Part shown: in pieces, positions 29,045-36,761 of the stretch
Layout: each line of letters opens with the position of its first letter
How positions within the stretch are numbered: position 1 is the stretch's first letter
Sequence record: OZ035795.1
Length of the DNA: 64,000 nucleotides
Reading direction: 5' to 3' (one strand)
Source: Krischvirus LF73P4
Translations under genes and position numbers: made by a program
The notes under the pieces: model-generated
The model's database searches: none
The model's input: only the letters and a program-made list of their open reading frames with translations
Told to the model about the DNA's origin: nothing

Positions 29045-29407
29045 ATGCTAGGTCATTCTAAAATAGAAGATTGCTCATTCAGAGCAATGAAAGATGATTT
29101 TTCGGTCCTGTACGCGTCTATCCGAGAGTTGTTTGTAGATTTTAAGCAATTCAGAGAATACAAAGGAGTTAAGATGCGGGAGTGGGTATTCTGGCCTTTC
29201 TATATCATTACTCTGTTTTCTATGGTATTTTGTTTTGTCGGGATCACTATCGCTAGTTTTGTCACTTGCGTTTTCCTGATTATCAGGTGTATCATGTTTG
29301 CTTTGATTGCTGCCCCGTTTATTGTGTCAATCCTTCCGTTAAAATGGCTATTGGATTGGGCTGATAAATCTGATAAAGTAAAGAATGTGATTTGTAAGCG
29401 TGTATGA
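29045..29407 (+). CDS. hypothetical membrane protein
   Basis: 120 aa with long hydrophobic segments. Confidence 0.5.
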   Translation: MLGHSKIEDCSFRAMKDDFSVLYASIRELFVDFKQFREYKGVKMREWVFWPFYIITLFSMVFCFVGITIASFVTCVFLIIRCIMFALIAAPFIVSILPLKWLLDWADKSDKVKNVICKRV

Positions 29408-29414
29408 GGTGAAG

Positions 29415-30761
29415 ATGAATAAATCAGTTACTTACCGCAGCCTTGAAAGCATTGTACATAATGAAGCTAAGGAATATGCGATCTATTCTGCCGAGGAACG
29501 CGGGATTCCTCAATTAGTAGATGGGCTTAAACCAGTGCAACGCTTTGTTATGGAATGTGCTTTGCAAAAGAGTAAAGGCGACCGTAAGAAATTCCGTAAG
29601 ATGGCAGATATTGGATCTGGTGTTGCTGAGTTGGGTTATCACCACGGGGAAACTAATGCCGTAGAAGCCGGATCACTCATGGCGAATACATGGAGCAATA
29701 ATACTCCACTGCTTGACGGTCAAGGTAACTTCGGATCTCGTTTAGTCCAGAAAGCAGGTGCAGCACGTTATATCTTTGCTCGTGTGCATGAAAACTTCTT
29801 TAAAATCTATAAAGATATGAATTGCGCACCTAAGCACGAAGATCTGGAACACATCCCGCCAGCGTTCTACTTGCCAGTTGTGCCAATGGTATTGGCTAAT
29901 GGTATTAGTGGTATTGCTACAGGGTATAAAACTGACATTTTACCGCATTCACTGGAAAGCCTCATTGAATGCACAGAGCTAGCACTTGCCGGAAAACTGG
30001 ATAAAGAACCTAGTGTTCAATTCCCGAAATTCACGGGTAAAGTTATCCCGCGAGATGATCGCGATGGTGTGATTCTTGAGGGTACATATGAACTAAACGG
30101 CAAGACTAAACTGACAATATCAGAAGTTCCTTATAAGTTCGACCGTGAAGAATATGTAGCGGTACTGGATGCACTGGAAGAAAAAGATCTGATTGTATCG
30201 TATAATGACCGTTGCTCTAAGGACGGATTCAGATTTGAAGTAACACTGAAACGCGATTATTTCAAAAGCGAAGATGAATCCGCTCGACATGAGCAAATCA
30301 TGAAGGATTTTAAACTAACGCAGTTAGTAGCCCAGAATATCGTAGTGGTTAATGAACGTGGTTTAGTAGAAGTATTCGAGAAAGCGAGCGATCTGATCCG
30401 TCGATTCGTCGAAATCCGATTAGGGTATGTTGATAAACGCATTGAATTGATGCAAGCGGAAACGCTGGAAGCATACAATTATGCAATGGCTAAAGCCGAA
30501 TTTATCGATCGCGTAATTAAGGGCGAAATCGAGCTACAGGGCAAGAAAAAGGCCGAGGTAATGCAATCCATCAATGGACATGAAAAACTGCGTCCATACG
30601 CCGATAAGCTAGTTTCTATGCCATTGTATAGCGTTACTCAAGAAGAGTATGATCGACTGGTCAAAGATGCCAATAAACATCATAGTGAATATGAGTATTG
30701 GACAAAGACGACAGCAATGAAGGAATATAAGAAAGATCTTAAAGAACTTAAGAAGGGTTGA
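29415..30761 (+). CDS. 52: DNA topoisomerase II medium subunit gp52 (GyrA-like)
   Basis: 448 aa from ATG 29415; conserved blocks (GLKPVQRF, GYHHGE, LLDGQGNFGSR) as in T4 gp52. Confidence 0.9.
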   Translation: MNKSVTYRSLESIVHNEAKEYAIYSAEERGIPQLVDGLKPVQRFVMECALQKSKGDRKKFRKMADIGSGVAELGYHHGETNAVEAGSLMANTWSNNTPLLDGQGNFGSRLVQKAGAARYIFARVHENFFKIYKDMNCAPKHEDLEHIPPAFYLPVVPMVLANGISGIATGYKTDILPHSLESLIECTELALAGKLDKEPSVQFPKFTGKVIPRDDRDGVILEGTYELNGKTKLTISEVPYKFDREEYVAVLDALEEKDLIVSYNDRCSKDGFRFEVTLKRDYFKSEDESARHEQIMKDFKLTQLVAQNIVVVNERGLVEVFEKASDLIRRFVEIRLGYVDKRIELMQAETLEAYNYAMAKAEFIDRVIKGEIELQGKKKAEVMQSINGHEKLRPYADKLVSMPLYSVTQEEYDRLVKDANKHHSEYEYWTKTTAMKEYKKDLKELKKG

Positions 30762-31675: not shown

Positions 31676-31710
31676 TTGACACCAGAACAAGGGAGTAGTA
31701 ACATACTCCC
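31676..31710 (+). promoter_or_regulatory. repeated promoter + stem-loop cassette, copy 1 (TTGACA-17-TAACAT; GGGAGTA/TACTCCC)
   Basis: -35 at 31676-31681, -10 at 31699-31704, inverted repeat 31691-31710. Confidence 0.5.
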
Positions 31711-31735
31711 ATACCAAACAAAAGGAGAATCAAAG

Positions 31736-32008
31736 ATGAACAACGAAAACAGCAAGGTGTTAGCAATTGCCGATAAAGTAGGTTACTGGAAATGCTGGGA
31801 TGATATGGAGAAATTAGGCGGTCGCTATCTCGATAACTTAGAGTTGCATTATTGCCAAGCGCGTAATGCAGAAGTTGCGGGAGTAGCAATCGAAGATATT
31901 CCGTCTAAAGTCTTCGGATTCTCTAAAGATGATACTCTAGAATATGTTTTCAAGGCTGTTATGGATCAAGCATGGGAAGACGCAGAGACACGCGCTCTTG
32001 ATTGGTGA
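31736..32008 (+). CDS. hypothetical protein
   Basis: 90 aa; AGGAG upstream. Confidence 0.45.
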   Translation: MNNENSKVLAIADKVGYWKCWDDMEKLGGRYLDNLELHYCQARNAEVAGVAIEDIPSKVFGFSKDDTLEYVFKAVMDQAWEDAETRALDW

Positions 32009-32012
32009 TAAT

Positions 32013-32183
32013 ATGAACTGGTATAAAATTTGGAAAAATCAGGTGGAGGCTTATCTAGGGTATAAGCCCACCGACGAAGAATTACTTGAAGCAATGTACG
32101 AAGACGGAATAAATCCGAAAGTAGCCGCGCAAGAATACGCGGAATGGATGAAGGTCGAAGATAACATAAAGGGGAAACTATGA
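32013..32183 (+). CDS. hypothetical protein
   Basis: 56-aa ORF. Confidence 0.35.
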   Translation: MNWYKIWKNQVEAYLGYKPTDEELLEAMYEDGINPKVAAQEYAEWMKVEDNIKGKL

Positions 32184-32380
32184 AGAAAATGATTGCAATT
32201 GCTTTGCTGGCTAGTGCATGTACTGTAAATGCTAATACCGCAGCGATGGTCGCGGCTGTAACTGCCGCAAATGCTTCCGTTATGGCATCGCAAGAGGCAG
32301 CACGCCAGCAAGCACAACAAGAAGCCCAGCGAAAAGCGCATGAGGCGACGAAAAAATTTCACGAAAATAACAAAAATTAG
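32180..32380 (+). CDS. small exported protein (signal peptide; possible lipoprotein)
   Basis: MKKMIAIALLASAC N-terminus; Ala/Gln-rich helical remainder. Confidence 0.45.
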   Translation: MKKMIAIALLASACTVNANTAAMVAAVTAANASVMASQEAARQQAQQEAQRKAHEATKKFHENNKN

Positions 32381-32415
32381 TTGACTCCAAAGGTCATCGG
32401 TAGTATTATACTCCC
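32381..32415 (+). promoter_or_regulatory. repeated promoter + stem-loop cassette, degenerate copy 2 (TTGACT-17-TATTAT)
   Basis: -35 at 32381-32386, -10 at 32404-32409, imperfect repeat ending TACTCCC 32409-32415. Confidence 0.45.
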
Positions 32416-32442
32416 ATACCGAAACGAACTGGAGGAATTAAA

Positions 32443-32685
32443 ATGGTTAAAGTTAATGTTATCGAAGTTGCACTGTATGACGCTGGTATCTTCCTGAATG
32501 AAAAAGAAGCTGCCGTTCTCGATGAACTGAAAACTGTTTTTGTTCCTGTAGTAGAAGACGTAGAAGCAATCAAAATCGCTTCTCGTAAACTGTCCCGCGA
32601 AGCATTCGATATGATTGATCCGGTTTTCAAAGTTATGCACGAATGCGCGGTTATGATGACCGAAGAAGAAGCGAAAAATTTCTAA
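32443..32685 (+). CDS. hypothetical protein
   Basis: 80-aa ORF; GGAGGA upstream. Confidence 0.45.
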   Translation: MVKVNVIEVALYDAGIFLNEKEAAVLDELKTVFVPVVEDVEAIKIASRKLSREAFDMIDPVFKVMHECAVMMTEEEAKNF

Positions 32686-33036: not shown

Positions 33037-33795
33037 ATGAAAAACATTATCGCTGCTATCGTTCTTTCCGCTACTGCTTTCGGTGCTAATGCTGCGTCCT
33101 TTGATTGCGCTAAAGCTACTACCAAATCAGAGAAGTTTATTTGTGCTAATGAGTCTATCTCCGCACTGGACTCTAAACTTCATGAAGTGTATGTTAAGGC
33201 TGTTAAGATTGATCCGTCTCTGAAACAAGAGCAACGAAACTGGAATAAAACTGTTCGTGATACAATGATCAATATCGGGCAGATTCAGCCACTGGAGGCT
33301 GTATACAACGCTCAAATCCAAAACTTGATGAATGTATTACCTAAAGAAGAAACCGCGTCAGAAAGCGATTCAGAGACTTCTGCGAAGGTTGAAGAAGAAC
33401 AACCGAAACAGGAAGCAAAAGTGGTAGAAGAACCGAAGGTCGAAACTTTTACCTATCAATGCACCGTTCGTTATGAGTGGAGTATGAAAGATGGAATTTC
33501 CACAAAAATTAAAGAAGCGCCACTGTATGCCAAATATGGAAATCAACCAGGAGATCTTAAAGTAACCATTAAAAATGGGAAGATGGTTGATTTTGTATAC
33601 ATTGATGAATACAACGTACACAAAGCAAACGTACAAGAAACCGTTATGACTAAAGGCGGGTTTTATAAGAATGTTGGCAAGAAAGATCTATATGAATACT
33701 CCGTTTTCGAACCAAACGACGGAACTATTCGATTCGAAAAACGTCATCCTACATTCGGTGGCGCAATTGATGTAGATCAATACGTTTGCAAGTAA
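33037..33795 (+). CDS. exported protein with DUF1311/LprI-like N-terminal domain
   Basis: Signal peptide ending ANA; FDCAKATT..EKFIC..ESISALDSKL..Y motif; acidic/lysine linker. Confidence 0.55.
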   Translation: MKNIIAAIVLSATAFGANAASFDCAKATTKSEKFICANESISALDSKLHEVYVKAVKIDPSLKQEQRNWNKTVRDTMINIGQIQPLEAVYNAQIQNLMNVLPKEETASESDSETSAKVEEEQPKQEAKVVEEPKVETFTYQCTVRYEWSMKDGISTKIKEAPLYAKYGNQPGDLKVTIKNGKMVDFVYIDEYNVHKANVQETVMTKGGFYKNVGKKDLYEYSVFEPNDGTIRFEKRHPTFGGAIDVDQYVCK

Positions 33796-35488: not shown

Positions 35489-35812
35489 ATGATCGAGTTT
35501 GAAATTGACAACTTTCACGAAAAAGCAGAAGACTTAACCAAAATTTTGATTAGTCGAGGTGCATATAATACGAAAGATATTATAAAAGAAGTTAATGTAG
35601 CGATGGACGCGATCCAAAAGGAATTTAAACATATTTCAGCGATTGGAGAAAATGGTCATCTTGAAGATGTTGAGCTGGTAGCACTGCGACGCTATTACTT
35701 CTTTGTTGATTGCATCATTGATCTAGCTAAAAATTATAGTCATTACATGAAAGATATTGTAAACGATGCACGTAAGTTGGCAGAGAATGTTTACGGGAAG
35801 TTTCCAGAATGA
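35489..35812 (+). CDS. hypothetical protein (paralog of 35042-35374)
   Basis: 107 aa; GAGG upstream of ATG 35489. Confidence 0.5.
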   Translation: MIEFEIDNFHEKAEDLTKILISRGAYNTKDIIKEVNVAMDAIQKEFKHISAIGENGHLEDVELVALRRYYFFVDCIIDLAKNYSHYMKDIVNDARKLAENVYGKFPE

Positions 35813-36057
35813 AATTAGAACAAGCGATTGTATACTTTGAGATGGGCTATGATATTGCTCGTGTAGAGTGGGAAGATGGTGATTTTGTCCGATTGATTGA
35901 TCTTCCAGAAACAGCTATTGCACTGGTCAAAGTAGAAAACGGCATACAACGAAATTACGCGTTTTCTGACGAAGACAAACAAGCCGATGACTGGTACGCT
36001 ACATGTTTTCATCATACAGCGTCAAAATGCGATTCAGGCGCGTCTATGCGTCAATAA
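35809..36057 (+). CDS. hypothetical protein
   Basis: 82-aa ORF. Confidence 0.45.
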   Translation: MKLEQAIVYFEMGYDIARVEWEDGDFVRLIDLPETAIALVKVENGIQRNYAFSDEDKQADDWYATCFHHTASKCDSGASMRQ

Positions 36058-36104: not shown

Positions 36105-36761
36105 TTATCTAATCCTTCCGAGGATTCTGGCAGATTGATTGCAAAGAGTATCTAAATTCTCAATGTCAATATCCGGTTTATTCTTCCATGCAATGGAGAT
36201 ACTACCAGAATAGACATTATCGAGATTGAATATAGGGCAAGAATACATAAACCCTATATCGATACTCTCTAATTTCTTTTCTCTTGATGGAATATACTGG
36301 AAATCTTTATCGGTAAAATATGATTTACCTAAAAGATGCCTACGATATTCTTCACTCGTTTTATTGATAGGGAATCCGCCTAAATTTTTTTCATCGATTG
36401 TATGCGGTAACTTTCCTTCATATGCCACCAAATCAACAAAATAGTTTAGGTTTTTCGGACGAAAACTAAAAACAGCAGAAAAATCGGCATCAGCCGACAC
36501 ATGAACTATCTGTAACTGCTCCTGTGCTGCATTATCAAAATTGCGGTCTTTCTCTACCTGGAGAACGTGAGCATAAGTCTCATAACGAGTCTCTTTATAA
36601 AGCGCAAATAACTCGTTTTTACTATAAACGACAAATGCTAATATAGACAACACGACGGCAGCAAAAACACGAAGTACGAGCAACTCCGTGCTTTTAGTTG
36701 TGAAAATAGCGCGCAGGACATTTGAGATAGCAAAGTCTTTCCCTTTTTCAGAAACTTGCAT
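36105..36761 (-). CDS. t: holin T (lysis protein t)
   Basis: 218 aa, same length and strong similarity to T4 holin as recalled (LQIVHVSADADFSAVFSFRPKNLNYFVD...). Confidence 0.9.
   Translation of the reverse strand: MQVSEKGKDFAISNVLRAIFTTKSTELLVLRVFAAVVLSILAFVVYSKNELFALYKETRYETYAHVLQVEKDRNFDNAAQEQLQIVHVSADADFSAVFSFRPKNLNYFVDLVAYEGKLPHTIDEKNLGGFPINKTSEEYRRHLLGKSYFTDKDFQYIPSREKKLESIDIGFMYSCPIFNLDNVYSGSISIAWKNKPDIDIENLDTLCNQSARILGRIR

Follow-up and report, generated by a model that had tools for sequence, protein, structure and literature searches.

The PeSLs (promoter-early stem-loops) of the phages RB49 and Phi1 associate a strong sigma70-like promoter with a terminator hairpin, and they are sites of modular shuffling (Arbiol, Comeau and Krisch 2010; PMC2839356). 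The ORFans flanked by these elements are the closest described relatives of the locus studied here as regards its genetic organization: same genus, same type of locus, small ORFans, and presence/absence polymorphism between near-identical phages. For the protein itself, the known terms of comparison are envelope proteins. Spackle of T4 (Sp, gp61.3) is a small, early, alpha-helical periplasmic protein of superinfection exclusion, cleaved from its signal and not lipidated (PMC7677548). Llp of T5 is lipidated on its Cys1, carries a Cys11-Cys58 disulfide, binds FhuA, and is encoded next to the receptor-binding protein gene (PMC9586334). Finally Lpp and the alanine-zipper lipoproteins such as OprI resemble our protein by their size, their richness in Ala, Gln and Asn, their single long helix—predicted in our case—and their Lys-rich C-terminus.

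Krischvirus phages are RB49-like T4-type coliphages, and one of them, LF73P4, is the source of the DNA stretch of 64,000 nucleotides analysed here (record OZ035795.1), hereafter the window. In its variable region, which extends from gene 52 to holin t and contains about 18 small ORFs of the + strand, the ORF 32180-32380 encodes the 66-aa protein MKKMIAIALLASACTVNANTAAMVAAVTAANASVMASQEAARQQAQQEAQRKAHEATKKFHENNKN, and is found exactly as the first-pass annotation gave it (Table 1). Holin t lies 3.7 kb from this gene. The 3 kb around the ORF are 95-98% identical to the corresponding DNA of KMB43, FL04, Makalu, GEC-3S, W115 and others. The gene has been annotated as a CDS in most of the GenBank records examined, and more than 20 records already carry it as “hypothetical” or “putative membrane protein”.

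Table 1. Coordinates in the window of the gene, its predicted parts and its surroundings.
Feature	Position	Strand	Remarks
Topoisomerase gene 52	29400-30761		
PeSL cassette, most likely promoter of the three-gene unit	31676..31732	+	TTGACA-17 nt-TAACAT, 10/12 match
First cistron, 90-aa ORF	31736..32008	+	phrog_7287; RB49p266 homolog
Second cistron, 56-aa ORF	32013..32183	+	phrog_8655; RB49p265 homolog
Shine-Dalgarno AGGGG	32170-32174	+	5 nt 5' of the ATG of the 66-codon gene; kept in the divergent ortholog
66-codon gene, precursor of a small exported helical peptide (predicted)	32180..32380	+	ortholog: GEC-3S BN201_0266 / W115_81
Predicted Sec signal peptide, residues 1-18	32180..32233	+	n MKK, h MIAIALLASA, c CTVNA
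Cys14 codon TGT of the lipobox-like LASAC	32219..32221	+	TTC (Phe) in the L002-type ortholog
Predicted mature peptide, residues 19-66	32234..32377	+	48 aa, 5.15 kDa (5153 Da), pI 9.5
Downstream PeSL-like cassette, degenerate stem	32381..32437	+	TTGACT-17 nt-TATTAT (32381-32409); starts one base after the stop of the 66-codon gene
Holin t	36105-36761	minus	Pfam Phage_holin_T

Its most divergent ortholog is that of L002, a metagenomic Krischvirus; the same divergent form is found in L003 and L004, from a second sample. The comparison with L002 gives 27 nucleotide differences, 19 of them at codon position 3, i.e. 17 synonymous and 10 non-synonymous changes, with a dN/dS of 0.125 for the whole gene and 0.089 for codons 19-66; the neighbouring genes range from 0.02 to 0.07. 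Among the 14 orthologous sequences, 11, 9 and 28 sites are variable at codon positions 1, 2 and 3 respectively. A Shine-Dalgarno (SD) sequence precedes the ATG, which shares bases with the TGA of the 56-aa ORF just before it (ATGA); with the low dN/dS and the codon-position bias added, this is a real coding gene under purifying selection. Two other gene calls were discarded. A 103-aa ORF of the reverse strand (32051-32362) is an artefact: the codon positions at which changes accumulate are those expected for the + frame, and the neighbours are all + strand genes. The start at Met4, annotated in phage FL37, is ruled out by the spacing from the SD and by the conserved Lys-Lys.

The “repeated promoter cassette” between copies of which the first-pass annotation had placed the gene is the already published PeSL. 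Four copies (repeat family D1) are present in the window, at 31676, 32381, 32693 and 32974; all have a -35 of the TTGAC type, a 17-nt spacer and a -10 box, matching the promoter at 9-10 of 12 positions. The flanking cassettes display what defines the class—sigma70-like -35 and -10, 17-nt spacer, stem-loop, downstream SD, repetition. The 7-bp GGGAGTA/TACTCCC hairpin occurs in three copies (for cassette 31676..31732, -12.3 kcal/mol, z -3.4), and its stem is degenerate in the copy at 32381.

The gene does have a cassette directly on its 3' side, but the nearest one on its 5' side stands 448 nt away, with two ORFs (31736-32008 and 32013-32183) in between. With these two ORFs our gene thus forms a three-gene unit, in which it is the last cistron, and it is not individually flanked by cassettes. 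The same annotation took it for an early accessory gene, which is consistent with the sigma70-like promoters of the PeSLs and with the presence/absence pattern described below. The promoter consensus and the reporter assays published for PeSLs suggest that the host sigma70 RNA polymerase transcribes the unit early, from the PeSL at 31676; the sequence shows that the 66 codons are then translated from their own SD, the ATGA overlap coupling them to the ORF before.

The downstream cassette, 32381..32437, is annotated as a promoter in GEC-3S and is the putative promoter of the next ORF (32443-32685, 80 aa). Its stem GGTAGTA/TACTCCC has one mismatch and a 3-nt loop, and the canonical hairpin is not part of the minimum-energy fold of 32381-32437; the z of the fold is -1.6, versus -2.2 to -3.4 for the other copies. 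Because the canonical hairpin is absent from this fold, termination after our gene may be weak, with some read-through into the 80-aa ORF.

The distribution of the gene is narrow. A search of 5.8 billion proteins returned four clusters only, all from Krischvirus, and an exhaustive HMM profile search of 1.84 billion representatives retrieved nothing besides the own family of the protein and P0005. The latter, a 651-aa repeat protein, is a spurious relative, matching through low-complexity stretches of Gln, Asn and Ala. No match was found in IMG/VR by protein pattern or by degenerate DNA pattern, nor was the gene found in E. coli genomes and plasmids; in metagenomes, the DNA pattern identified two near-identical contigs that carry it. 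No significant match came from PADLOC, NCBIfam, Pfam or, even at E<=10, PHROGs. The best match of the family libraries, the N-terminus of FkpA (E 0.22), was rejected since it amounts to a signal peptide followed by an Ala-rich stretch, and the sequence profile search of the PDB gave chance matches only (dynamin-like, EsxB, E>0.7). By these sequence searches, the protein is a strict ORFan, limited to Krischvirus in the databases searched.

Even within Krischvirus the gene is irregularly present: 27 of the 58 related records have it, and it is missing from RB49 (NC_005066), Phi1, JSE and about 20 others. In RB49 (NC_005066) the next 80-aa ORF is missing too. We note that the records labelled RB49 disagree, the gene being present in OZ035808.1 (“Krischvirus RB49”, L011) and absent from the reference NC_005066.1 (L005). 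In the E26-type phages (four records: E26, 011D4, phiS and PHB13) a clean in-frame internal deletion is found. It joins the 56-aa ORF, with the reading frame kept, to the 11 final codons of our gene (in E26, L006 1501-1695, corresponding to 32013-32380 of the window), and the fusion product ends with ...KVEKNLEETKNFHENNKN. The deletion apparently took place between short GAGG repeats; this type of loss is a microhomology deletion and not a PeSL-PeSL recombination. Together, the presence/absence pattern and the E26-type deletion show that the gene is dispensable for growth on laboratory E. coli, and, as read from the genomes compared, that it is a lineage-restricted accessory gene of Krischvirus phages. 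In L002 (4990-5045, compared with 32009-32183 of the window) it is the 56-aa ORF that is absent, so that the 90-aa ORF immediately precedes our gene; here again the indel lies elsewhere than at a PeSL. The extension of the L002 protein to 79 aa from an upstream ATG, proposed by the gene caller, is probably a wrong start.

The 3' end of the gene is also variable. One-base indels in A-runs (32355-32386 of the window; L001, L012-L018) generate three C-terminal isoforms: 66 aa ending with ...FHENNKN, 74 aa ending with ...FHENNKK[A/L]VDAKGHR, whose frame continues across the TTGAC -35 box of the following promoter, and a second form of 66 aa, ending with ...FTKITKN. A truncated variant of 52 aa exists as well. 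Across the isoforms the constraint is limited to residues 1-59, the last 6-8 residues being unconstrained. Such a frameshifted C-terminus, added to the truncated variant, to the repeated loss (31 of 58 records without the gene) and to homologs found nowhere outside Krischvirus, could evoke a decaying or spurious ORF, or else a cytoplasmic peptide whose N-terminus is merely signal-like. We regard this as very improbable: the dN/dS and the codon-position bias reveal a clear purifying selection, the SD is conserved, residues 1-59 are conserved across the isoforms, and the ORF is a CDS in most of the GenBank records examined.

What the product may be is mostly told by its N-terminus. Residues 1-18 have the organization of a Sec signal peptide cleaved by signal peptidase I (SPI): a basic n-region, an uncharged h-region within the usual 7-15 residues and a polar c-region. 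The Kyte-Doolittle hydrophobicity peaks at 3.16 over 7 residues and at 1.51 over 19 residues, the threshold for a stable membrane anchor or transmembrane (TM) helix being 1.6 over 19 residues. V16-N17-A18, followed by N19, obeys the (-3,-1) rule, small or neutral residues standing at -3 and -1. This site is invariant in all 14 sequences and in P0001-P0004: VNA/NTAAMVAAVTAANAS (the slash marks the predicted cleavage) is constant in every ortholog, and VNA/N19-T20 and the next 15 residues are unchanged in all sequences. By contrast with this invariant site, four of the five substitutions of the signal region fall at residues 11-15, C14F included; such a clustering next to an invariant VNA fits a cleaved h/c-region, not a lipid-attachment site. 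N-termini of this kind are uncommon in the window: a simple screen of the n- and h-regions of all its SD-preceded ORFs gave four signal-like N-termini, of which two are convincing signal peptides, that of our protein and that of the 252-aa ORF at 33037.

The presence of LASAC at residues 10-14 had led to the proposal that the exported protein is possibly a lipoprotein. Export is well supported by the sequence (MKK, 10-residue core, cleavage sites); lipidation is not. If it were a lipoprotein, Lgt would lipidate Cys14 and LspA would cut after Ala13; with Thr at +2, the Lol system would carry the 53-residue lipopeptide to the inner leaflet of the outer membrane, where it would mask or jam a receptor in the manner of T5 Llp or Cor. 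Receptor blocking by small lipoproteins of phages is well known (PMC9586334), the n-region is basic, and LASAC, which matches two patterns looser than the standard lipobox, the core of PROSITE PS51257 and G+LPPv2, is kept in all the close relatives (13 of the 14 sequences examined, the Cys being retained in 13/13). The standard lipobox is [LV(I)][ASTVI][GAS]C, and its Cys is “always present” in lipoproteins (PMC8048626). Our A(-3) S(-2) A(-1) C does not match this expression, failing by its Ala at -3. In addition Cys14 is badly placed, since the rule attached to PS51257 asks for a Cys between residues 15 and 35; the stretch before the 4-residue box, where an h-region of at least 7 residues is expected, is limited to the 7 residues M4-L10.

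In the L002-type ortholog, MKKIIAIALLVSSFSVNANT..., this Cys is replaced by Phe (LLVSSF-SVNA/NT in L002, L003 and L004). This ortholog was recovered from two independent samples and is itself under purifying selection, mature part included. The truncated variant P0004 moreover has Val at -1. A published prediction points in the same direction: the authors who described phage W115 used TMHMM, SignalP 4.1 and LipoP v1 (PMC9355613), and for W115_81, identical to our protein over residues 1-58, they recorded one TM helix and no lipoprotein, although the same pipeline marked the o-spanin “Yes” for lipoprotein (PMC9355613 supplement). As the protein has no homology to Llp or Cor, no second Cys for a disulfide, and a gene that does not adjoin that of a receptor-binding protein, we find a lipoprotein unlikely, and this label a mis-annotation to be avoided. 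Cleavage by signal peptidase I after Ala18, on the other hand, is a rule-based prediction that we hold as somewhat probable, because the (-3,-1) rule, the conservation of the site and the loss of the Cys in an ortholog converge on it.

The TM helix recorded for the W115 ortholog, together with the name “putative membrane protein” given by its authors, leads to the main rival reading, that of a small inner-membrane protein: an uncleaved N-in/C-out anchor, or a weakly hydrophobic SAR-like (signal-anchor-release) domain as in the T4 antiholin RI, the protein oligomerising within the membrane or at its surface by means of an Ala-rich zipper. Residues 4-37 are indeed a run of 34 uncharged residues rich in Ala, Ser and Thr, with a small-xxx-small periodicity typical of the packing of membrane helices, and holin t is in the vicinity (3.7 kb). 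We nevertheless find this location doubtful. TMHMM commonly scores signal peptides as TM helices; the hydrophobic core is of about 10-13 residues only, followed by Asn17 and Asn19; the Kyte-Doolittle value stays below 1.6 in all 19-residue windows; the V-x-A cleavage site that comes directly after this core is canonical and invariant; and no similarity was found to RI or to any holin/antiholin family.

Returning to a product cleaved after Ala18, its mature part would be a basic peptide with two halves of different composition. Residues 20-37 are uncharged, made of Ala, Val, Met, Ser, Thr and Asn, and small residues follow a strict i+4 small-xxx-small pattern on one face (A21, A25, A29, S33 and S37, flanked by A22, A26 and A30), which, going by the sequence, is a helix-packing motif. 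Residues 38-66 are rich in Gln, Ala, Lys and Glu and have a net positive charge. The Ala/Gln-rich helical segment announced after the signal is well there, with 14 Ala and 6 Gln in the 48 mature residues, and AlphaFold2 models one continuous helix from residue 3 to residue 65 (mean pLDDT 72). As the mature part has no Cys, there is no disulfide. The half formed by residues 20-37 is weakly hydrophobic (Eisenberg mean about 0.42), and the mature peptide may therefore be membrane-associated rather than soluble.

We thus favour, as a probable though not firm reading, a small helical periplasmic peptide that is not lipidated, encoded by a dispensable accessory gene and exported by an ordinary cleavable signal. 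LepB would cut the precursor after Val16-Asn17-Ala18 and release into the periplasm a basic (pI 9.5), all-helical peptide of 48 residues. There, the small-residue face of its uncharged Ala/Val-rich half would probably ensure helix-helix packing with itself, with an envelope protein or with the membrane surface. As to the role, our guess is that the likeliest would be non-essential and directed to the envelope, for example an interference with competing phages. The superinfection exclusion or receptor masking proposed in the first-pass annotation is, for the time being, a guess by analogy, and receptor masking by a lipoprotein would be the least likely form of it.

A more specific function can be imagined, that of a new, minimal type of periplasmic effector, a single amphiphilic helix that would use its Ala/Ser small-residue face either to dock on a protein of the envelope or to assemble with itself at the inner membrane. 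Its target might be the tail lysozyme, a component of a receptor or of DNA entry, or holin T through its periplasmic domain. If so, it would exclude competing Krischvirus or T-even phages, or modulate the timing of lysis, while being unrelated in sequence to Llp, RI, Imm and Spackle, and the natural non-carriers RB49, Phi1 and JSE would be the excluded competitors. So precise a function seems to us improbable; should the protein block superinfection or shift the timing of lysis, it would be an unusually small and non-homologous periplasmic phage effector. Nature has in any case provided the experiment, as near-identical phages exist with the gene, without it, and with its clean in-frame deletion.

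For the way the product would be made and where it would be sent, Spackle appears as the best analogy. The likeness stops there: Spackle is a compact helical bundle of 75 residues with a disulfide, widely conserved with 178 homologs, whereas our protein would be a single predicted helix of 48 residues with no Cys in its mature part, encoded by about half of the Krischvirus genomes; no PHROG, Pfam, NCBIfam or PDB-sequence match relates it to Spackle or Imm. Llp and Cor are, like it, small (about 60 aa) phage-encoded envelope proteins, and the lipobox-like LASAC invites the comparison. It differs from them by the non-conserved Cys, the unmatched lipobox, the negative LipoP prediction and the lack of disulfide; PHROGs and Pfam gave no match to them even at E<=10, and its neighbours, unlike those of Llp, are small ORFans located between gene 52 and holin t. 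An Lpp-like protein is ruled out by the lack of any Pfam match at E<=1, a range that covers the Lpp and alanine-zipper families, by the non-conserved Cys, and by the variable C-terminus: the terminal Lys that would serve for peptidoglycan attachment is not conserved, since the isoforms differ.

On the genetic side, we see in this gene, already present in GenBank, an ordinary case of a known class, the PeSL-associated ORFans in the hyperplastic regions of T4-type phages. It differs from the ORFans described by Arbiol, Comeau and Krisch (2010) in that RB49 and Phi1, the two genomes on which their analysis was made, lack it, and in having a PeSL on its 3' side only. At least one of its losses, that found in E26-type phages, moreover results from an internal deletion by microhomology and not from recombination between PeSLs.

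Two neighbouring genes deserve a mention. The 252-aa ORF 33037-33795 (+), conserved in all the Krischvirus examined (RB49p262), starts with a classical signal of the SPI type (MKNIIAAIVLSATAFGANA/AS) and matches the Pfam family LprI (lysozyme inhibitor, PF07007) with 25.8 bits for a gathering threshold of 22; no PDB sequence match was obtained for it. From its sequence, this protein could inhibit lysozyme in the periplasm and would then be a functional analogue of Spackle. The 82-aa ORF 35809-36057 (+), which lies just before holin t, matches the Pfam family Tad2-like (Thoeris anti-defence 2) with 27.9 bits for a gathering threshold of 25 (E 3.4e-6).
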